A stretch of 64,000 bases of DNA, taken from the NCBI GenBank assembly GCA_964187785.1, contig OZ076409.1:46130001-46194000 (forward strand), read 5' to 3'. A program made the position numbers and the translations under genes. Numbering within the stretch: position 1 is the stretch's first letter; the number at the start of each line of letters is the position of its first letter. Below, piece after piece: positions 22,579-50,472 of the stretch. Origin of the DNA: Amphiscolops sp. MND2022 (taxonomy: Eukaryota). Below the pieces are notes generated by a model. It searched no databases. It worked only from the letters and a program-made list of their open reading frames with translations, and had not been told where the DNA came from.

Positions 22579-22763
22579 TTACATTAATGAAAATTTTCGC
22601 TTGAAGTTCTGAGCAGTCACCAAAGCCAGCTTGGAAGGTATTTCCTGTCCAGACATCAAGGAGTACACATCTTTTGTAGAGACTATAAGCGCCCCCAAGT
22701 CATTTAGCTTTTTCTTAGTGTCTGCAATTCCATTTTTATCAACGCCCCTGCAAGCATCTTCCA
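22579..22763 (-). CDS. Naam: Nicotinamidase last coding exon
   Basis: gttttag acceptor in a phase that restores VVEDACRGVD. TAA stop at 22579-22581. The four-exon model is 927 nt, or 308 aa. Confidence 0.9.
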
Positions 22764-22962
22764 CTAAAACATCAAAGAGTATGGTAAAATTCTACTGTTT
22801 ATACCCTAGAAATGACCCCATTTACGGGAAGCATGCCAGACAAACATGCATGTACATGCCTCGCTGCAAATTAACGACTTGGAGGCAACGCCTTCTTTAA
22901 CCATAATAGCAATTTTATAGCTATCGATACAATTTCGATGCTATTATGTGATGCCCAATCGT

Positions 22963-23396
22963 CTGGGGTGTGGGATTTTTAGACCGTGGACCGAAACCCG
23001 TAGTGCCAAACCGTAACCCGTAAACCGTAGTTGTGAAAAAAGCGAACCGTACACTTTTGAGAAATACGAGCGAATTGTTTTATACATTTAACAGCAGTGT
23101 TTCTGTGAAAATTTTGGAGCGAATTCAATTGTTCATTCTCAAATAAGAACGTCTTTAAAAGACGAATTCGTTCAAAATTTTTTAACGCTATAATTTGCAG
23201 AGGGCGTTCCCTCAAATGCTTTTTTGGGGCAAGAAACATGAGTGCTTTGAAAACACCATTACAAAGATTTTTGATGAAGAAATTTAAATACTTCTGAAGC
23301 AAAAGTGTTTTTCAAACCGTACGCTAAAACCGTAAACCGTAGACGATAACCCGTAAACCGTAATTTCAATTCAAACCGTACGGTTCCACACCCCAG
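22963..23396. mobile_element. hAT-type MITE in the nicotinamidase intron
   Basis: TIR ctggggtgtgg / ccacaccccag. Perfect 8-bp TSD ccaatcgt. Subterminal aaaccgt repeats. Confidence 0.9.
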
Positions 23397-23673
23397 CCAA
23401 TCGTTCATTAAATTTCAGCTGAAATCTGAAGACAGTTTTCATTTTGACAGCAAAATCAGGCAATATTGTCGTGGGTAAAATGAAATTTGCAATGAAGTTC
23501 GTTTTTCTGAGAAATATAAGCCTTCGCTCTGTACGCATTTACTGTTTAAATATGGTTATTCGACCAAATATGGTTATCCCATACAGGTTATGTGTTACAT
23601 TTTACATTTGATTGTCGGTTTAATGAGCGTCCCGCTTACGAGAATGATAAAAGTTTCAGGAGCAATCGCTTAC

Positions 23674-24101
23674 CAACTATGACACGGAAATTGTGTTTGC
23701 AAGCATGTGTTGCAGTGAAATTTACACAAACGTCAGTAGCCAGACCTCCGATATACACATCAGTGACTTGTCTCTGCCTCAGTTGATCCAACAAACCCGT
23801 GGGGGTAATATCCCCGTTATCCCAGAAGGCGGAATAAGATTCTGATTTGGGTTGGCATCCCTTGAATATGTTAATTGCCCCGTCCACAATCTTCAAATCC
23901 TTATGCAGCTTGGCACCTTCTGAGCCCTGAACACAGTGAATCGGCCACAAAGTCTGGGTCAGAGGCGGTTTACCTTCGAAAACCACCTGGTCAAACAATT
24001 TAATGTTTTCCCAGTCACCGATGTTTGGCTCCACAAGCATATTTTTGTAGATTGATAGGTTCGGGTGGAATGATATGTGGTTTTTAGGATGCCAATCATG
24101 A
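23674..24101 (-). CDS. Naam: Nicotinamidase exon
   Basis: tttttag acceptor, then SHDWHP (metal ligands), LWPIHCVQ, IFKG (catalytic Lys), SYSAF and GLATDVCV (catalytic Cys). Ends GTT G|gtaagc, phase 1. Confidence 0.93.
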
Positions 24102-24248
24102 CTAAAAAAGTACCTTCATGTCAAAACTAAATATCTACAGCCCAAAGCCAAAACCAAAGCATACTTGCAAAAATGGTCGAAATCCTAGAAATCCATATAA
24201 ATTGGTTTCATGTTTACCTAAAGAAACTACAAACTAAGATCGACCAAC

Positions 24249-24505
24249 CTGTATACAACATGATCAAAAGATATATTTTCCAGAATTTCGTTAAGGACTG
24301 GAACAACTTCGGCACCATCTTCTTGAGCAGGGCAATTTGACAAAGCCAGCGATCCAGAAATGAAATCATTTTGGACGTCAACAGCGATGAAGGCAGTTAC
24401 TGGCTTCAAAATTGGGTTAACGAAATTGAACCACACAACTTCGAACTGTTGCTCACTCAGAGAAGTTTCGCGAACTTTTACTAAGCAATCGGCAATTTTT
24501 GGCAC
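24249..24505 (-). CDS. Naam: Nicotinamidase exon
   Basis: Encodes AFIAVDVQNDFISGSLAL (catalytic Asp) and EVVPVLNEIL...FDHVVY. Ends TAC AG|gttggt, phase 2. Confidence 0.9.
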
Positions 24506-24561
24506 CTAAAGAAAAAAAACATGTTCATTCATTCTAGCTCAGTGAGTGGAGTGGAGCATAC

Positions 24562-37634: not shown

Positions 37635-40324
37635 TCAAATGATTCGGGGTGGGGTTTTTCTGGATTCTATTTTATCATAAATAAGCCGCAGTTTCTTGAG
37701 GGTATCTGATGATTTAAGCCCCAGGCAGTCTTCCAAATGGTTGGGGCTCTCACAGTTTTCTCCGCATTCATCACAAATACAGGGGTGTCCGTCGTCCTGG
37801 GGTCCATAGCAGTTTTCTTTTCGGCAAAAGCCATGATGTAGTCCATTACAATAGTAAATGGCGATGATGCGTCGCATCAGGAGATTTGCAGAGGTAATCT
37901 TCAAATGATCATCGTAATAAATTCCCTCGATTAATCGTCGGGAGCTGTATCGGTAGCTTATTTTACACCATTTTTTCCAGAAGTAGCCGATAATAGTCAG
38001 TTGGTGAGTCGTAAAGCTTTCATCGAAGGCGTTTCCTCCATCATCGAATATTTCACATCCATACGTTCCACATGGCATTACAACAGTCGTTAAAAGTCTA
38101 TTGCCAGAGTCTAATGAAATTCTCGATAGGTCAAGTCTTGCATTGATAGAGTTAACAGAATTGATAGCCTTGGTTTTCATAAATTGAAGATGCCGGTTGA
38201 CAGACAATCTGGGTGTTAGTATAACCCCAAGATAACAGAAATTATTAACGAATTCAACATTCTGGTTTTGGTATGTCAGGTTGTCTCCCTTTGCCAGAGG
38301 TCCTCCATACCTGAGTTTGACCACCTGTGTTTTCTCAATATTCACGATTAGGGAGTTATTGAGGCAGTATTCTTGTAAAATATCCATGCTCCATTGTATA
38401 TTATCAATGACTTTGGATCCGATAGCTAGGTCGTCTGCATAAAAGAGGATATTACATCCTGTGATTTCCAAGTACCTTGATAAATCGGCTATAAATAGTG
38501 AGAATAGTAGAGGAGAGAGCTTGTCTCCTTGTGGGACGCCAAGATCGGTTATTATTTCATTTGACAGCAGATTCCCATCCAAAACTTTGATGACATTATC
38601 TTTCAAAATTGACAGAAGGACATTTCCCATTGTATTACCAATTCCCATCTGGAGTAATTTCAAAAGTAGGGTTTGTCTATCAATACTATCAAAGGCCTTC
38701 TTAAAGTCTACAAAACAAACATAGTATCTGCCAATGCTGGCGAGGGACGATTTTATGTTACTGACTAGGTGGGTGACGGCTTGTAGTGTAGAATATCCTC
38801 TACGAAAACCAAACTGGTTTGGAGGAAGTAGTCGGTAGGTTTCGGTCCATTTGTAGAGACGTTCATAAATTAGCCCAGTATATGTTTTCAGTAAACAGGA
38901 TAGTAGGGTTATGCCTCTATAGTTCGTAGGGTCATTTTTCTGTCCTTTTCGTTTAAAAATAGGCATGACTAATCCCAATTTCCATTCATCCGGAATCGTT
39001 CCGGTGTTCCAGCAGGTGTTTATAAGAGATGAAAGGAAAGGTCCTGTGAACTGGAACGATTGTTTCAGGGCTTCGTAGGCTACTCCATCATTACCTGTTG
39101 CTTTATTGTTTGGTTGTTTGCGAATTTCTTCATAAAGTTCATAGATACTGAAGGGTAAAGTAAGAAGGGTCAACATATTGAGGTGGATATTGAGGAACAA
39201 AAGGCGGTGGTTTGTTTGAATTGAGCAATTTCTCATAATAGCTATACCATTCATAAATATCTATTGGGTTCGATGTGGCGGTTCCTTTGCGAATTTTGAG
39301 AAGATCCCAGAATTTCCTTTTATTGTTTTCAGCTGTAAATACAATGCGTTCCTCTTCCTCTTTAAAGAATTGTTGCTTAGCATATCGAATAGCTCGTTTA
39401 TAGATAGTTTTCAAATAGGCCTGTTCGGGGGCATTATTTTGTCGAAGTTTCTTCAGTTTTGATGCAACTCGTAAAGTTGACCGTTGAACCATGGTTTGGA
39501 TTTTCTTGGTTTCTGTTGTACTTTGCAGTCATGGAGTAACTTGCAAATCGAATTGGCGTATTCAGACACATCAGATTCAGAGTTGCAGAAGTCCATGTCA
39601 TTGAAGGCTATTGCTAATAGGGAAGGATCCATTTTTCGCAATGAGGTTTTCTTTATTTGCCACTTATCATTCGAGGACGCTATTTGGGTTACAACTAGAT
39701 TGTGTTTGGTTACGTTTGAGTTCAGTACATGCAGTTTCAGGTTATTCGTCAAGGTTGGGGACGCAAATACTAAATCTATCACGCTCGTTCCGTTCGATGC
39801 ATGGAATGTGGGTTTTGTGGGATCGTTAATGCATCCAAAGCCAATATTTAGCATCAAATCGACTAACTGGTCACCTCTACCATCATCGACATCCAACGAC
39901 AGTTGAAGTCACCGCATATTAGGACATTTTTCCAATTGTTTTGGGATGTGATATCCGTAATGTCACTAATGATTTCTTCTACCTCTGTGAGTGGTGGAAA
40001 GTAAGCTGCTATAAGGAAGATTTGTATGTCGCTAAAATTGAGTTGGATAGCCATTACGTGTTTCGTTCTGGTTACAGGCTTTATTTTGGCTCGGAGATTT
40101 TTGTTGATTGCCACAGTTATTCCTCCCATTGGGCGCCCTTTTTTAGGTTTTACTGCAGCTTGATTGATACATTTAAAGGAAGGTATCTCCAATTCTCGAA
40201 TACTCATTGTTTCGACCAAAATGAGAACGGAGTAAGAATTAATGTCATGTTCTTCTTCAGTCGCTAGAGTAGATTTTGCTCCTTCTACATTCCATAGGAG
40301 GAAATGTAGCTCGCTATTCGATAG
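37635..40324 (-). pseudogene. LINE ORF2 (AP endonuclease + reverse transcriptase), three frameshifts
   Basis: WNVEG, LVET, GDFN, SVIDL, QFGFR, FVDFKKAFD, GVPQGDKLSP, YADD and a Cys-rich C-terminus. Frame breaks near 39890, 39480 and 39200 could be real decay or read errors. Confidence 0.9.
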
Positions 40325-41119
40325 TCATTCCTGTTTGATAATTTTATTCCTATATATTTTGTAGTTTCCGTTTGGATCCGATTCTCGCTTTTCTTTCAAT
40401 TCTTTACGCAGTTGGGTATTTAAACGCCGTTGCTCTGGTGTTAGGTCAGGGTTGATGTATGTGTTTTCATACTCTTTACTGTTTCTGAGATCTTTTGCTT
40501 TACTGATGACCAGCCATTTACTTTTGCTGTCCGTCATTTGTACCAAGAGCATCCGGCGATTGTTTACTTTTTGTCTGGTTATAATTTCCTCAACTTTGAT
40601 AGGTATGTCGTTGATTCCGAGTTTCGAGATGATGCCAGTGGCGGTTTCAGACACTGTTTCGTTTTCTTTGTTCGGTGGGTTAACAATAATCAGGTTGCAT
40701 TCCTTTGCTTTTTGTCTTCTTTCCTCCATGCGAATTTCATTTAGAGTAGTTGCTCTGTTTTCTTCTTCATTTTTGAGTTCGTACTTTTGCTTTTGTACAA
40801 TTTCGGCAAAAGTTTGTTGCAACTTCTCTGGGTTATGTTGCCGAATCGTCTGATGTAGGCGAGTGTTTTCAGCAATTAGTGATTCTATTCTTTCGGACGA
40901 GCAGAACCCGCAGGTGTATGGTCTTTTCAGTACTTCTGGATTGATTTTCTTTGGTAGCCAAATATCCGTCCAAATTTCGCAACCTACAGTAGTGCAAAGT
41001 ACTTGGTGATTAAAACCGGTTTCATCAACCTTCCCTTGTTCGCCGTCTTCTTCGCTGCAGTAGAATTCGTCTTGTTTTTTCGTAACATTTTTTCTGGGTT
41101 GAGAACCTTTTGGTCCCAT
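40325..41119 (-). CDS. LINE ORF1 protein
   Basis: ATG at 41119. Cys-rich PHD-like N-part, coiled coil, NLII and YINPDLT motifs typical of CR1/L2-group ORF1. Confidence 0.8.
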   Translation of the reverse strand: MGPKGSQPRKNVTKKQDEFYCSEEDGEQGKVDETGFNHQVLCTTVGCEIWTDIWLPKKINPEVLKRPYTCGFCSSERIESLIAENTRLHQTIRQHNPEKLQQTFAEIVQKQKYELKNEEENRATTLNEIRMEERRQKAKECNLIIVNPPNKENETVSETATGIISKLGINDIPIKVEEIITRQKVNNRRMLLVQMTDSKSKWLVISKAKDLRNSKEYENTYINPDLTPEQRRLNTQLRKELKEKRESDPNGNYKIYRNKIIKQE

Positions 41120-41204
41120 GTTGCTCCTTTGTCTCCAGGTGCCTTTTTCCAGGACAGTGTTGCTAACCTCCTCGAGAGTCATGTTACCAGATTCGGAAAG
41201 TTTT

Positions 41205-42059: not shown

Positions 42060-42606
42060 AAAGTTTTTGAGGATTCATAAATGTACGAGATATAAACAGC
42101 AAGATGTAAACCTTTTCATAAACTATATTTGGAACTTCAGGTGGAAAAATAATGACAACAGGTCATTTCTGAAATGTTACACCAGAACCCCACCAACTTG
42201 TAACACTATATCGCCCCTTTTCAACCTTCAAAGGTACGAAGCCATCAAAATTTGTGAAATGCTGCTCGGCAATTCTTTCTCTTTAGCCGATTTTGCTTGG
42301 AAAAATTGACAGACGGAATCTCCGATGTGTCATTGTGGCAAAAGTGAAGAGACTACAGAACATTTCTTCCTGGCATGTGGCCTATACCAAGACATGAGAC
42401 CTGAAGACATTGACTCATTGAATCTCCTTGACCCTGAAGATTGCTATACCATTGTCGACTACATCTCACATTCAACGAAGTTAAAAGGAATCGTATATTT
42501 TCATCATTAAATCCTAACTTAACTTTATCCAACTTTATATATATATATATATAGCCTAATTGTTGTGATAAACTTATTAAATAGTTTCCGGTTATATGAA
42601 AACTTG

Positions 42607-43458
42607 ATGATGGTTCTCACAAGAAGTGCACTTGTCTCCTCTTCCAACAGTGATGGGACAACTCAACTGGGTGGAACATGTGCTGTGGATCATGGACTCT
42701 GTTCTGTATGTCATGGATCGCAACAAACGAGGGACTGGATTCAATGTGAAAAATGTTCTCACTGGCTTCACTCTCAGTGTCTGAAAATACCAAAGGAAGT
42801 ATTCGTTTACTTATCCTCGTCTGAAAATTTCTCCTATTTTTGTGATTCGTGTGTTAGCAAAAAATCAGCCTTTGATGACTCAACTGAAAATGCTAAACTA
42901 GATGAACTTAAAAAAGATATCAAAACAATCGTCGAAAACGTCATTGAAGAAAAGTTGCCGAACAAAATTCCTATATCTACGAAAGAACCTAAAACACGAG
43001 ATCGGCATGTACCTGAAACGACCATAACTGAGGACAATAATTACCATTACAAAATCAGAATATCCGGAATTGAGGAAATGGATTCCAAGTTTTTCATAGA
43101 TAGACAACTGCATGATAAGTCCGAAGTCGAAAAGATTCTTGATGATTTAAATTGCTCCGGAAATGTTATTGAAACTCAACGACTTGGGAAATTTGATAAA
43201 AATAGAACTCGGAACCTACTTGTAACATTTGGATCTGTATGGGATGCTCGCAAAGTCATCGCAAAGGCCATCGAGAAAAAATATTTCCTAAACAAAAGGG
43301 TTTTGATCACCCCTGAACTGTCCCCAAAGGACCTTTTACTGGAAAGACAACTGTTAGCCAAACGTTACGAATTGATCAGTAGTGGCATAGATCGTAGCCG
43401 TTTGAAAATAAAAAAATTGAGACTCTACAAAGACAACGAACTGGTAGAGGTGAACTGA
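42607..43458 (+). CDS. LINE ORF1 protein with PHD finger
   Basis: CSVC...WIQCEKCSHWLHSQC...YFCDSC, then IRISGIEE, RLGKF and ITPELS. Confidence 0.88.
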   Translation: MMVLTRSALVSSSNSDGTTQLGGTCAVDHGLCSVCHGSQQTRDWIQCEKCSHWLHSQCLKIPKEVFVYLSSSENFSYFCDSCVSKKSAFDDSTENAKLDELKKDIKTIVENVIEEKLPNKIPISTKEPKTRDRHVPETTITEDNNYHYKIRISGIEEMDSKFFIDRQLHDKSEVEKILDDLNCSGNVIETQRLGKFDKNRTRNLLVTFGSVWDARKVIAKAIEKKYFLNKRVLITPELSPKDLLLERQLLAKRYELISSGIDRSRLKIKKLRLYKDNELVEVN

Positions 43459-46215
43459 CTAGAAAATTACGAAAATGTCCACCGCATCTTTCTTTTAAAC
43501 TGCCGCAGTATCTTATCCCTAGAAAAAAGACTTCACTTATCGTGTATTCTCCAATCAAGATTACCTGATATTCTCTGCCTTTCTGAAACCTGGTGGGATG
43601 AATCTTCTTCAGACAATACTTTTCTCACAGCTGCCTACTCAGTCATAGCAAAAGCCGTGCGTGAAACAAATCAGCATGGAGGTGTGGCTATTATGGCAAA
43701 AAAAGAACTGGTTGCATCAAAAATAGAATGCTTGGACAATACATTTTGTTGTGGTATATCATTTGATACCTATGGAATTATTGTTTTATACAATCCTCCA
43801 AACCCTAGTGAGTATCGTGTTCCTGATGATGTAATCTCAAATTGCTTATCCTCGGCCTATAATGTTCTCAGTAACGCTTCCATTGATAAAGTATTAATTA
43901 TGGGCGATTTCAACTTATCAAACGAGGATTGGGCACAGTTCCCAGCGATCAGTACAGAATATTTCTGTGAAACCGAAAAATTCCATACTGCTAAAAATTT
44001 CACCCAGCTTGTAAAGGAACCAACGCACAAAGATAGTAATGTCCTTGACCTGGTCTTTACAAACTATGACGAGCCTGAAGTTCTTGATATTGAAAAACAT
44101 CCAACTTTTTCTGATCATTTCAGCATATCTGTGGGTATCCCTAAAAACTCTGAAACAATGTACACACAAACTGACCTCAAACAATACAGTCTCGCAGCAA
44201 CCGACTTAAATTCGATTGACCTAACACTAGCTCAGTCACTATTCTCGTTCGAACTAGACCAAAATTCTGTCGACTTCATTGCGGACTGGCTGATTTCATT
44301 TCAAAACATTCTCAAACAGTTCTTAGTTAGCAAACGGCAAAAGCGAAAAATGTTGCCGGATTACTTGAGCTCTCACAGTATTCATCTCTTCAACTGCCTC
44401 CAAACAGAATTAAAGCAACTAAATGGCCTCAACTTGAAAAATTATATGAAATACAATACTATCTGTAAAGAACTTGAAAATTCTATTGAGTTGGACACAA
44501 ATGTATTCCTCGACAAGTTTTGTGCCGTAAATGGTGATGTAAATGATTGTTACAAACTGATTAGAAAACTCAAAATTTCCGACATTCCGAAGACAATGAT
44601 TGTTCCCAAAAAGAAAAAAATTACTGGAAGTTCCAAAATTGCAAACGCCTTCAATCAGTATTTTGGATCAGTATTCAATGCTTCTGACGATACATTCACC
44701 GATTTTACTGATAATGTACTGAATGATGTAGAACTATCTACCGAAATCGCAAATGAGGCTCTAGATTTATCAACTGATGGCATTGGCCCTGATGGTATTC
44801 ATGGTCAAATTTTACGAAAGTGTTCAAACAGTCTCTCAATACATTTCTACAACCTATCAAAGGTTATCGTAGAAACTGGAGTGTATCCTACATCCTGGAA
44901 AAAAACCATTATCACACCCAAATTCAAAGAGGGATTGAAAAATGAGATAGCCAACTACCGTCCAATTGCTTCTTTGAGCAAACTTTCACTCGCATTTGAA
45001 AGAATTCTTTTCAGGAGCATTTCCAAGCATCTACAGGACAAACTATCCTCCCATCAATTTGGTTTTCGAAAATCCCGATCATGTATCATCCAGTTACTGT
45101 CGTTCTTTGATAAAATCTTTGAGTGGATCGATTCCAAAGAAAAAGCCTTTGCAATCTATTTGGATTATTCTAAAGCATTTGATCGAGTCCCTCATTCTAT
45201 ACTACTGAAAAAACTACGATCTCTGGGTCTGGGTGGATCTCTACTCAAACTAATAGCTTCATATTTGCAAAACCGAGTGCAACAAGTTAAAATTGAAAAC
45301 TGTCAATCAGAAGAGTGTCCTATTACAAGTGGTGTGCCCCAAGGCTCAGTGGTCGGCCCGCTTTTCTTCATTGCGTTTATAAATGACCTGCCCGAGAATT
45401 GTGAGTGTGTTCCATTTCTATTCGCTGACGACCTTAAACTGGCAAGTTCATCTCTGTTCGAGCTTCAGAACGATTTGTTATCACTAATGAAGTGGAGTGA
45501 AGAAAACAAACTCGACTTTAACTTGCAGAAGACGAAATTATTACACTTCAGTAAATCAAAGATGCAATGTGATAACCTTGTCCTACACATGGGAGAAAAT
45601 GATATCTATCCTACAACAAAGAGTATTCGTGATCTTGGTGTCTGGGTCTCTCCAAATTTGACATGGAACGATCACATAAATATTAAAATAGCAAATTGTT
45701 ATAAACGCCTAGCCATGTTACGTCGGAACCTTCCTAAAATGCTTAACCCTGACATGAAATTTAAATTGTACCGCATCTACATTTTACCCACACTTGCTTA
45801 TGCTTCAGGTGTTTGGCATCCGAACAGAGGAGACTTAAAAAAAATACAAAGGCTGCAGCGGATCTGTTTCAAGTGGATTGACTATAGGAGCTCATTTCAT
45901 CAACTTCTTGACAAATATCACCATTTACCGATCTCTTTACATCTTCAAATGCAGGATCTGCTACTGTTCAACAAGCTCACAATGGGCCTTTATGACTTCA
46001 CCATATGGGATTATGTGTGTTCAAATCAACACAACAATAATTATGAGCTCAGAAGTAACACCAAAAATATTTTCATGTCTGACTACACACGTTTAAAGTG
46101 TACACGGGAATTTTTCTTCAATCGAATCATCAAACTTAGCAATTTTGTACAACAAGAATACAACATTAAACTGCCAAACCACCCTGCCGCATATGAATCC
46201 GATCTAAAGAGAATT
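43459..46215 (+). CDS. LINE ORF2 (AP endonuclease + reverse transcriptase), in frame with ORF1
   Basis: LLNCRS, LSETW, GGVAI, MGDFN, LDLV, SDH, QFGFR, LDYSKAFDRVPH, GVPQGSVVGP and FADD. No stop before the gap. Confidence 0.93.
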
Positions 46216-46415
46216 NNNNNNNNNNNNNNNNNNNNNNNNNNNNNNNNNNNNNNNNNNNNNNNNNNNNNNNNNNNNNNNNNNNNNNNNNNNNNNNNNNNNN
46301 NNNNNNNNNNNNNNNNNNNNNNNNNNNNNNNNNNNNNNNNNNNNNNNNNNNNNNNNNNNNNNNNNNNNNNNNNNNNNNNNNNNNNNNNNNNNNNNNNNNN
46401 NNNNNNNNNNNNNNN
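46216..46415. other. Assembly gap
   Basis: Run of N. Confidence 1.
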
Positions 46416-46483
46416 AAAATCCTTTTTACGGTGATTCAGTATATAAATCTTGTGAAGGGACCCAGCGAGATCCTAAGTCTCCA

Positions 46484-49400
46484 GCCTAATTGTTGTGATA
46501 AACTTTATAAATAGTTTCAGAGAACCATGCCTTCTATAAGAATGGCATCATCCAGTCAAGATGAAGATGAGGGCTCGTCACACCTTTTTTTCTCTTTTTC
46601 TCTATCAGATATCATGGATCTTCGTCATCAATCAAGTGCCATGTGTATCATCATGTTGGGGGATGAAGACACACACCCGTGGTCTGCAACGAAAGTGGGG
46701 AACCCCATACCAGCCACTATACCAGTAACAAAAAAAATGTTGTACTGATGTGACCAATCTCGTCACACCTGATTGAATGTACAGGAAAAAGGCAGACCGG
46801 AAAGGGCTGTGTGGCGTGGATCCCTACTTGGCTCCCAGTTAAAAAATAACCAAAGGATTCATGAATCGTCCTTTTTTGTGTGGCTTCTGTGCAGCTTCGC
46901 TATCAGGAAAGAATTTGCTAAAATCTTTCCATTGAAACGACTCATCTACGCCTTAACCACAGTTAGAGGTAATATCCCTCTTGAATTCCTGACCGAAACG
47001 GAAGCCACAGAAGTCTTCGAGAAATAGGAACAAACTTTCCTTGGAAATCAAAGTAAAATCCGAAGAGCCAGCGAGATTGAAAAACCAAATAAAACTGTTA
47101 ATGTCAAGAGGGTCCCCACTAATATAGACGACTCCGAAATAGCCCTTTCAATCCAAAACAATCACTCCTTTGATGACGTCAAAGTTACGAGGTTCATTAA
47201 ACGCGACCAAACGAAACTCGAAACAGTTAAAATCAACTTTAAAACAGTAAACGACGTGGAGAAAGCCCTCAACGAAGGTTTATTCTTTGACTCACTTTTC
47301 TACGAACCAACACGCTTTGAACAGAGGACTCTAACAATAATACGCTGTTTCAACTGCCAAGGTTTGGACACATTAGCTTAAAATGTAAATCGAGTCGATC
47401 CTGTGTCCACTGTAGCAGAAACCACAGTTATAACCATTGCTCAAAATCAGAACCACCAAAATGTGCTAACTGCCACGGAAATCATCCCGCCGACTCTACA
47501 GACTGTCCAACCTACCTGAAACAAGTATTCACCGTATACAACGCTCGTGGGATACCGATTCCTGTATCAGCTCAGCAACGGATCGAAAGCCTAGGAATTA
47601 AGATCAATGAGACTTGACTACTGCCGTTTCTTGGTACTGAATATCAACGGAATCAGCAACCATTGCAAAAATGCTTTAGAAAAATACGTCAAAGAGCAAC
47701 AACCGATCTGCATGTGCCTAAATGAGACAAATAAACACCTCGACATTGACGCCTTCACAAACTATAACACCGAGAGCTCAAATAAATACCGGGGCTTAGC
47801 AATACTAATGAGACAAAACCTTCGTTACACCAGATTGACCGAACTTGAATCCAGCGAAATTGATAGATTTTTCTTGTCACAATCATCCGCGGTCATAAAG
47901 TTCTGATTAGCACAGCTTACATACCCCCAAATAGCCCCCAACAAATGCGAATCTGGTTAGAACAATACGATTCTGCTTTCGATCAGATCGTCCGAAACAA
48001 CTTCGAAGGCATGCTCTTTTTCGGAGACCTGAATGCCCGACATACATACTGGGGAGACACAACCGCAAACGACCATGGAACCATGTTAGTGGATAGATTG
48101 AACGAAGATGTCGCTGTAATCAACAATGGTGCATATACTTTCCTAGCAACAAATGGTCATAGCGTCATTGACTTATGCATTCTGACTCACTCCTTATCTT
48201 CAAAACCGACATGTCTTATAACAGACGAGGAAACGGAACTTTTCACTGGTGCTCCTACCAGAGGACACATTCCAGTCTTTCGTGAGTTAAAATTATCAGC
48301 AGAACCTCATGCCGTACAATCCAAGCCGCCGTGGATAGAAAAGGCGGATTGGGAATCTTGGCGAAACTTTTTAGAACAAGAAACTTGTGGCCCAGTAAAA
48401 TAGAATGATGACCCCGAGTGCTGCTGGAAATCACTTGGAGGCATACTGACGGAAGCTACGAATCTCTACATTTCGACAAAACGAACCAATAGAAACAGCA
48501 AGCTGTTCTGGAACGAGGAACTCAGCAAAGCCAGTAAAGAATTAAGAGCCTTGAGGCGCAAGTTCAAATACAACTCCAACTTCCGAAACGGTCAACATCT
48601 AGCACAAGCTAGCGATCATTTCAAAAAATTACTGTCAGAGAGCGCATCAACATGGATGAGTAAGATTTTAGCCGAAATGGGACATAAACACGGAAAACAG
48701 TTCTGGTCAATTTACAATAGGCTTTTCATAAGAAAAACCTGCGAGATGGGCCCTATTAAAGACTCCAAAGGAAAATTGCTCTGCGAACATAAGGATATTG
48801 CCGAACATTTGAAACAGACTTTTTTGAAGCCGTTCACTTGAAAAACCACAGATTCGACGAAGATCATCGTCAGAAAATGGAGAAGTATCTGCAAACGGAA
48901 GTCAGTATCTCACTGCAGGAGACATTAGATATTTGGCAAGACGAATTCTCACTCACTGAACTGGAGAAAGCCTTGAAAACTGTCAAAAACAGCTCGTTGG
49001 ACAACGATCTCATCCATCCCAAAATGTTTCAAAACTGGGGACACGATACCAAGTTGGCAGTTCTTGATTTATTCAATATGTGTTGGACTAAATCAATTTG
49101 GCCATGGGGAACTTCAAAGATCAATTTCATCAAGAAAACTGGTAAGAGCGCTTATGACATTCCACCAAGCTTTCGACACATATCAATAACAAGCCACATT
49201 GGGAAGTTGTTCGAAAGAATGATCAAGCGACGACTGCGTACCTTCCTTGAGGAAGAAAGTATCATCGAAGAAGAACAAGAAGGGTTTCAAAGTGGAAAGA
49301 ACACGCTTAGATCCCTCTACAGACTCGATCTCGAATGTGAATGGGCAAGAACGCATGAGGAATCTGCTGCACTTCTAAACGTTGACATTGAAAATGCTTT

Positions 49401-50472
49401 CGACAGTGTGTGGCTCGATGGCTTGATCTACAAATTGAAGAATCTGAAAATCAATATGAAAATGATAAAAATGATCGACGTCTTCCTTCGTTCCAGAAAC
49501 GGACAGATTCACCCAGATCCTTACACCTCACCCCTCTTCGGTATCCATATTGGACTACCACAAAGAAGAGTTTTCTCCCCTGTGCTGTTTATTATTTTCA
49601 TTTCTGATTTCTTATCCAACTCATTGAAATGCTTTAAATTTGCCGACGATTCTTCAGTACTTCTATCCGGACAAAAAATTACTAAATCGTTAAAGGACAC
49701 CTGCTCAGATATAGAAATGTGGTGTAGACGCTGGAGAAGGGCTGTAAACGGGTCAAAAACCGAAAATTAGCCTTTAACCAACTCACACGAAGATTTTACC
49801 CAGATCAAATTGAACGCAGAAAACTACAAAATTAGCGAAACCACGAAATCACTTGGACTCAACATCGATTCCAAACTCAACTACAAAGAACACACTGAAA
49901 TCTCAGTTGCCAAAGGTACGCGAAACTGGCATATCCTCCGAAAACATGGCAGCTCAAAGTGGGGCATCACCATTCCGACCCTAGTCTATCTTTACCGATC
50001 TGTCATACAACCCCAAGTTTTATTTGGAGAACCAATATGGGCACAAAAGAATATCAAATCACTACAACTCTTCCAAAACAATATCCTGAGATCGATCTTT
50101 AAAAACTGTTTATCGCCATCTATTAGTACAGCTGAAGCTCTCACAGGGAGCCCACCAATCGACCTTTTATGCCAAAGTCTAGCAGTCAAATTTTTATTCA
50201 AAACAAAGCAAAAAAAGACCTAATTCAAGCAGCCCACAACCAAGCATCAACCCGAAATCGCGGCAATAGTTGCGTCCTCGAAAGTTTCTGGAGAAGGCAT
50301 TGCAAAGTGACCAATACAACCAAAATTGGTTACACCCCTGAGTCGATATCCGCATTTCTAAATACTTTATGGCTAAACCGTTGGAAAAGTCCACTGACCG
50401 ATGTCTTTCTAAAAAAGTTCATTCACTCGAAACCCGCTGTTGGTAAACCCCGTCCACTTATAAGATCAAATT
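46484..50472 (+). mobile_element. Decayed LINE retaining its 5' end, with CCHC-knuckle ORF1 (I-group-like)
   Basis: ORF1 remnants CFNCQGLDH, CVHCSRNH and CANCHGNH. ORF2 pieces LNING, LNET, GDLNARH, SVIDL, QEGFQ, DIENAFDSVW, FADD and ALTGSPPIDL. Many frameshifts. Confidence 0.88.

Follow-up and report, generated by a model that had tools for sequence, protein, structure and literature searches.

In the genome of Amphiscolops sp. MND2022 (Eukaryota), full-length long interspersed nuclear elements (LINEs) of many families have the 32-nt host spliced leader (SL) at their 5′ end, and a second acceptor-like signal comes after it. Hundreds of LINE copies from at least four distant lineages begin with this leader. 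The starting point was a window of 64,000 nt (GenBank assembly GCA_964187785.1, contig OZ076409.1, positions 46,130,001 to 46,194,000 of the forward strand), for which an original prediction, made from the letters alone, had described two different LINEs that start with the same 31-nt, AG-ending leader. That LINE RNAs are SL trans-spliced, with the leader as their standard 5′ end, we regard as nearly certain. We also think it probable, with clearly less confidence, that the leader is renewed in each generation by trans-splicing at the AG of the old leader on read-through transcripts.

Both 31-mers lie where the original prediction had placed them, at 42554–42584 and 46484–46514, with two mismatches between them and TTTC directly after each. 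The common unit is in fact 32 nt, with an extra 5′ A at 42553 and 46483; the same A is found in 89 of 100 dispersed copies and in the SL RNA genes. A 21-nt leader pattern has two exact matches in the window compared with 0.01 expected from window shuffles (up to three mismatches allowed), and its recurrence is not a matter of chance.

The suspicion that the 31-mer is a spliced leader was borne out. It is identical to the trans-splicing leader published for the acoel Symsagittifera roscoffensis, in which 30.2% of genes are trans-spliced and an SL RNA gene is reported (PMC9911081). That paper, in two versions, was the sole match in a literature search with a 17-nt piece of the leader. Compared with the SL genes here, which show 32 nt ending in AG before GTAAGT, the published leader misses the initial A and has one more A at its end (PMC9911081). 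The first 22 nt of the leader have 1,942 matches in the genome and none for a reversed control. A search for SL RNA genes along the lines first proposed (31-mer, GT donor and Sm site) gave 1,209 matches of the leader's 3′ part followed by GTAA, which are candidate SL RNA genes with a GT donor. In a 200-kb sample from one array, 122 of 132 copies are canonical and continue with GTAAGT. The array unit is 904 bp long and contains 5S rRNA, the only match in an Rfam scan of the unit, which found no SL family. About 70 nt past the donor lies a sequence (AATTTTTGA) resembling what we take to be the Sm consensus, and in the fold of the SL RNA the end of the exon pairs with the intron in a stem that covers the donor, alongside a second hairpin. 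The genome thus contains about 1,200 SL RNA genes, the leader is a real SL, and the genome probably belongs to an acoel. A variant array unit (L233:8617, L241:17, L242:7678) keeps only about the first 15 nt of the SL intron before passing into a different sequence of ∼130 extra bp; it may reflect an insertion or a second type of SL RNA.

Within the 32-mer, AG occurs only at nt 1–2 and 31–32, and a branch-like CTAAT lies 25 nt before the end. Leader addition to host mRNAs at AG acceptors is recorded in two genomic retrocopies, L332 and L351, in the latter of which the leader replaces the sequence upstream of the host acceptor. Host retrocopies with a leader are rare; L332:186–1511 is a WDR36/Utp21 copy that has no introns and stays open over at least 440 aa, possibly a young or functional retrogene. 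The handful of host acceptors seen are pyrimidine-rich with an AG but not strictly TTTCAG, and a strict TTTCAG rule for host acceptors was dropped.

Outside the SL RNA genes, the genome contains 403 exact leader copies without a following G, and a further 40 and 30 copies in which G follows but the gene intron does not. Among the first 100 of the 403, 93 have a same-strand match to LINE proteins starting within 1.3 kb, the protein set being derived from reverse transcriptase (RT)-bearing members of these same elements. The non-redundant leader-led sites number 240, in 69 5′ groups. The original prediction had proposed counting the LINE families that begin with the leader: 55 of the 69 groups have a LINE match. 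We also recovered three families through anchors downstream of the leader, with no leader in the query (37, 83 and 45 copies). In the first 30 copies of each, 30, 30 and 28 start with the leader or a clipped or decayed part of it (88 of 90), and these 90 copies share no sequence upstream of the leader. Thus, no master copy bearing an outron or promoter is seen.

In an RT tree of 28 rows, leader-led elements fall into four lineages that are less than 35% identical; the RTs of the window's family A and I-like elements share 25.6% identity. One lineage lacks the apurinic/apyrimidinic endonuclease (APE) and has an end resembling a restriction-like endonuclease (RLE), a C-terminus read by eye in L109. 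Clade names (CR1/L2, I, RTEX, CRE, Tx1) are presumed from domain layout, and the tree is built without reference elements. The leader is constant across the four lineages, whereas the next six bases differ among families, and leader variants are singletons on family trees. Leader-led elements encode an RT with APE or an RLE-like end, lack long terminal repeats and end in simple-repeat tails such as (TAG)n, (TAC)n, (TC)n or (TAA)n. An extra open reading frame (ORF) of ∼200 aa lies upstream of ORF1 or ORF2 in several families (L069:496–1092, L109:547–1176, L138:332–1069, L302, L324, L339). It looks SGNH-esterase-like, but Pfam and PDB searches with it gave no credible match. This ORF and the hairpin-acceptor module described below are both common to leader-led elements of different RT lineages, which suggests that 5′ modules are swapped among them.

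Target-site duplications are absent in most leader-led elements, and we therefore used an empty-site test. Of 36 elements with both ends, 12 have a contiguous empty host repeat with no leader at the junction; a thirteenth match is spurious, and 23 elements have no empty site among the loci compared. No SL intron follows the elements on their 3′ side. Shared upstream flanks, as expected of 5′ transductions, occur in only two pairs among the 240 sites, both of them neighbouring duplicates. Just upstream of the leader, partial leader duplications are present at 22 of 240 sites, compared with 0 of 240 controls, and often end at nt 18 (e.g. L149, L176, L221, L222); they are probably template jumps during integration. 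The relict leaders that the original prediction had envisaged did not appear, with 0 of 240 copies having a sense leader word of at least 12 nt within 80 nt downstream. In 5′ groups 3, 6 and 54 (e.g. L140, L063; 26 copies), an 8-mer after TTTCCG equals leader nt 10–17 and may be a relict or chance. A cap-type G is depleted before intact leaders (11 of 170 compared with an 18.7% background, p 7e-6). L1 carries a cap-derived G at its 5′ end, a weak contrast with this depletion.

Most groups also keep a second signal after the leader. In 100 dispersed copies the next bases are TTTCCG in 35, TTTCAG in 25 and variants in the rest. Among the 69 groups, 21 begin with YYYYAG, 13 with TTTC or TTTG without AG, and 15 have a spacer ending in YYYCAG/T within 48 nt, so that 49 retain the second signal at variable distance; the other 20 include short forms without a sampled long partner. 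Copies that have lost this segment are informative. Fourteen short copies in seven groups lack 6–39 nt ending in AG, 13 of them at YYYCAG, while in L333 the skipped segment ends at an intermediate, non-consensus AATAG, 11 nt upstream of CTTCAG. This count leaves out 28 rows from a 4-nt duplication (L159) and six rows with unclear offsets (groups 4 and 13). Two additional copies lack TTTCCG or TTTCCGG. At control AGnnnnAG sites in element bodies, a 6-nt loss occurs in 0 of 351 site-copies. Because a segment of 6 nt, or one starting with CT, cannot be a cis intron, the short copies derive from LINE RNA that was trans-spliced at the second acceptor, and preserve those events as fossils. The proposal that LINE RNAs are trans-spliced before retrotransposition was thus upheld, by the 88 of 90 leader-led copies and by these short copies. 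Short forms make up 1/30, 3/30 and 4/27 events in the three anchored families and 6/27 loci in a fourth search, where one burst of copies 99.2–99.7% identical contains both long and short forms; they are dispersed over star-like family trees. Splicing at the second AG deletes that AG irreversibly, and no copies with a longer upstream region were seen, so something must remake the leader plus TTTCAG.

One locus, L351 (G000:C12:31.117 Mb), points to the AG of the leader itself. It consists of a decayed leader and a host exon 1, followed by TTTCAG and the start of a LINE ORF1. The host exon runs from its trans-splice acceptor exactly to its GT donor, and its frame fits the next two exons of a gene (L370–L373, G000:C13:5.44 Mb) whose best PDB match is Spindle-E (E 3e-16). 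L351 is the product expected if the host donor had spliced to the position of the leader AG, which implies a read-through RNA and suggests that this position can act as an acceptor. We take the gene, which encodes a Spindle-E-like helicase, to be a Spindle-E/TDRD9-like member of the piRNA pathway; a LINE acting as splice partner in its first intron would have cut short a transcript involved in transposon defence. Both acceptors raised in the original prediction therefore have fossil support, TTTCAG as a site used in a minority of copies and the leader AG through this one chimera. A foreign sequence joined at the second AG in L228 was set aside as possibly a plain truncation.

We propose that the pyrimidine run would recruit the spliceosome and that CTAAT at leader nt 4–8, which resembles what we take to be the branch-point consensus, would serve as branch point. 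The first downstream AG, the leader's own, would then accept a new leader. The resulting RNA would be capped and the same as the parent, and would be reverse-transcribed. Use of the second AG would give the short form, without the pyrimidine signal and probably a poor parent. Selection would keep the long form and, in some families, would have eliminated the second AG but spared TTTC. In families with a long spacer, an arm complementary to the 3′ end of the leader probably locks the finished RNA. These LINEs may be promoterless, and we lean slightly towards the broader statement that most LINE lineages in this animal have given up promoters and carry a self-renewing trans-splice cassette, which would cut an exact, capped copy from any read-through transcript. 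In this putative cassette the old leader would provide both branch point and acceptor, TTTCAG would act as recruiter, and a leader-complementary lock would be optional.

The arm lies just before the second acceptor. Stems are 14–20 bp in nine groups, and 19 of 96 representatives are significant compared with shuffles. The leader side of the hairpin is constant between groups, and the leader hairpin folds like stem I of the SL RNA, with the loop C(UGCG)G in family C. The stem may lock finished RNA against a second splice. The commonest leader variant affects position 25, with T to A in 76 of 90 cases (63 of 75 dispersed, 13 of 15 gene-type). SL genes with this change show no compensating change. 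The variant at first suggested that more than ten families had received a second leader allele afresh, a reading that we rejected; the change reflects a DNA hotspot. Outside leaders, the centre of TTA-x-TAA is flipped at 6 of 57 pair-sites compared with 0.9% overall, although the pairs are not independent. Across all loci, the centres of TTA-x-TAA and other short AT palindromes show A/T flips at 5–12 times background. A matching change in the arm of L284 may have the same origin.

Several observations weigh against renewal at the leader AG. In the hairpin families this AG lies inside or atop a stem of 10–20 bp, a position in which it should be masked, to the advantage of the second AG; long copies nevertheless predominate (23 of 27 events in family C). 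The stem is the main difficulty for renewal and the main support for an inherited promoter. L351 is one old event, 82% identical to the host exon, with 17 of 31 differences at third positions; today the LINE is absent from the 30 kb downstream of the matching exon, and AG microhomology may account for the junction. Two more chimera searches gave two and eight matches (control 3 for the second) and no second case: all were rejected as decayed leaders, L351 itself or unrelated sequence. L333 is a single copy with 5-nt microhomology, short forms are more frequent in families that keep AG than in CG families but not significantly so (p 0.10), and short copies may not be sterile. The leader-variant test has no power because the common variant is a DNA hotspot. 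Finally, no RNA read was found in which a copy with a mutated genomic leader carries a fresh one, in one run (X1; contigs, share 0.05) in which relatives are 90–99% alike. Its contigs include leader plus TTTCAG or leader plus hairpin spacer, many with upstream flank, and leave the SL intron uncovered; the run was not used as evidence because DNA cannot be distinguished from RNA there.

The main alternative is that the leader was captured by trans-splicing once per lineage and then inherited in cis as, or as part of, an internal promoter starting at the first A. Unspliced RNA would be the template, and splicing at the second acceptor would be occasional or would make a translation-competent mRNA. 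In Ascaris, too, the SL exon may act as an internal promoter, although our literature check did not confirm this. Such a promoter explains the dominance of long forms at any spacer length and the cis hairpin, including the C(UGCG)G loop of family C, and a promoter role for retroposed leaders has been proposed in dinoflagellates (PMC6050394). However, all 32 positions would have to be fixed by selection in four RT lineages without any co-variation between them and the hairpin arm. Short copies, which would still possess the promoter, should displace the long ones, but the second signal persists in 49 of 69 groups. L351 is not predicted, and no cap-type G precedes the leader. The shared internal promoter that the original prediction had offered as an alternative is thus weakened, and we hold it unlikely, while still the main competitor to renewal at the leader AG.

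The remaining routes together have only a small probability. One is non-spliceosomal attachment at each insertion: on reaching the LINE 5′ end, the RT would switch template to SL RNA or to an mRNA that bears the SL, with the complementary arm assisting in some families. About ten groups do have arms complementary to leader nt 12–33, and the partial upstream duplications point to template jumping at the 5′ end. Against this, almost every copy has its junction precisely at the SL donor, most families lack an arm and short forms end at YYYCAG, so that we consider it very improbable. Another, to which we give next to no weight, is that LINEs insert into a common target site or dispersed repeat represented by the leader, or that the second window copy is a misjoin. 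The SL/5S arrays of this genome do contain other elements that insert into the SL exon. At L231–L242 (G000:C1:16.23–16.38 Mb; e.g. L236:4620–9552), a 4.9-kb element with two ORFs, APE and RT, which we take to be Tx1/L1-like, duplicates leader nt 1–14, and several families of 1.4–2 kb, ORF1-only or non-coding, duplicate nt 1–18. These SL-gene-specific APE elements may be undescribed. The array elements duplicate only those parts of the leader, no SL intron follows the leader-led LINEs, and the empty sites are leader-free, which refutes a target site for the families tested. The second leader lies 67 nt past the assembly gap and is continuous with its own ORF1, and a relative lacking TTTCAG is present elsewhere (L306/L307), contrary to the suggestion of a misjoin across the gap.

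SLACS and CRE are known to target SL genes. NeSL-type non-LTR elements (PMC4640811) likewise adjoin the SL exon, but insert into SL RNA genes, whereas the leader-led LINEs are dispersed and bring the leader along. An insertion of the NeSL/SLACS type, with the remainder of the gene beyond the element, is seen in the separate array elements and not in the leader-led LINEs. R2- and RTE-type elements cut their own 5′ end from read-through transcripts with self-cleaving ribozymes; here, the host spliceosome would cut and add the cap. In dinoflagellate recycled retrogenes (PMC6050394), as here, the leader is retrocopied and passes through further rounds of splicing and retroposition. There, host genes amass relict leaders behind the new one, compared with 0 of 240 here, and the carriers described here are autonomous LINEs that retain a second acceptor. 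Leaders on transposon transcripts are known from Hydra transposable-element reads (PMC12220107) and Caenorhabditis elegans Cer1 (PMC3315495), and flatworm LINE and LTR loci with partial leaders were guessed to be retrocopies of such RNAs (PMC12582326). These cases agree in showing that retroelement transcripts can be trans-spliced; a constitutive 5′ leader of LINE families, a tandem acceptor, and long and short forms are not described in the available parts of these reports. The accessible text on S. roscoffensis (PMC9911081) likewise contains no mention of leaders on LINEs. Germline splicing in C. elegans favours an AG that lies 6 nt before TTTCAG (PMC4484395), the same geometry as the leader AG and TTTCAG here; that case is cis-splicing of nematode host introns, whereas trans-splicing is proposed here. 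In the portions of the literature surveyed, which excluded subscription journals and Repbase, a constitutive leader with tandem acceptor on LINE families is not described, and two further papers (PMC4558846, PMC1657053) added nothing on these points in the text available.

If leaders are renewed at the old leader AG, LINE activity would be tied to host trans-splicing and to germline choice of 3′ splice sites. A central problem of retrotransposon biology is how a LINE preserves an intact 5′ end and obtains a promoter at each new site; the known solutions are internal promoters, 3′ tandem promoters, ribozymes and fixed target sites. Leader recycling would be a further way, used across at least four RT lineages in one genome, and would make testable whether trans-splicing favours LINE survival in SL-using animals. 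Long and short insertions would provide a natural read-out of tandem acceptor choice in the germline, and leaders in LINEs a fossil record of the host leader. Counts of SL RNA genes and calls of trans-spliced genes should be read with caution, as they include hundreds of LINE heads.

Features of the window around the two leaders (positions within the 64,000-nt stretch)
Feature	Position	Strand	Evidence
Retrocopied spliced leader, 32 nt, 5′ end of LINE family A	42553..42584	+	Equals SL RNA gene exon and published leader
TTTCCG, AG-less variant of second (distal) acceptor	42585..42590	+	Copy L151 lacks exactly these 6 nt
Family A ORF1, PHD finger, 283 aa	42607..43458	+	Pfam PF00628 E 1.8e-08; ORF list
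Family A ORF2, APE endonuclease and RT, open up to gap	43459..46215	+	Pfam PF00078, PF03372, PF14529
Assembly gap, 200 N, containing element A 3′ end	46216..46415	.	Alignment to full copy L093
Second retrocopied leader, substitutions at positions 24 and 25 of 32	46483..46514	+	Sequence comparison; position 25 is a general mutation hotspot
TTTCAG, intact distal acceptor	46515..46520	+	Relatives L306/L307 carry leader without TTTCAG
5′ part of ORF1 related to family T, the element to which the second leader belongs	46527..46898	+	tblastn, blastn
5′-truncated decayed LINE, CCHC-type ORF1 remnant, APE and RT	46892..50460 (end approximate)	+	Pfam; RT tree

The first window element is, as predicted, a leader-led LINE with a PHD-type ORF1 and an RT, and Pfam adds the APE. 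The terminal AG of its leader is the proposed proximal acceptor. The ORF1 ATG lies 22 nt past the leader, and a three-codon upstream ORF begins at 42596. Its last ∼120 nt fall inside the gap, and it is 99.2% identical to the full copy L093. All 30 family A copies examined start with the leader or a 5′-clipped or decayed part of it. The short copy L151 is 100% identical to a long copy over 494 nt apart from its 6-nt loss.

The pairing of the second leader with a CCHC-type, I-like LINE did not hold at this locus. The leader is followed by ∼65 codons of family-T-like ORF1, in two pieces 65–84% identical to the family T ORF1 and interrupted by a dispersed repeat of ∼170 bp at about 46585–46758. 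The I-like copy lacks its first ∼1.5 kb and is joined directly to this fragment; it is 94% identical to L285 from about 1.5 kb past the L285 leader. The general claim survives, as the I-like family is leader-led at L054, L260 and L285. The second leader-led fragment and a family T copy sit at nearly the same position in one dispersed repeat (window 46420–46482 and L013:1439–1500), which may be target preference or coincidence.

A third LINE, frameshifted, occupies 37635–41200 on the minus strand. No leader was found on it, and it is unusable as a leader-less control because dispersed repeats overlie its 5′ end. A host isochorismatase/nicotinamidase-like gene, with three exons seen, lies at 22590–24510 on the minus strand.

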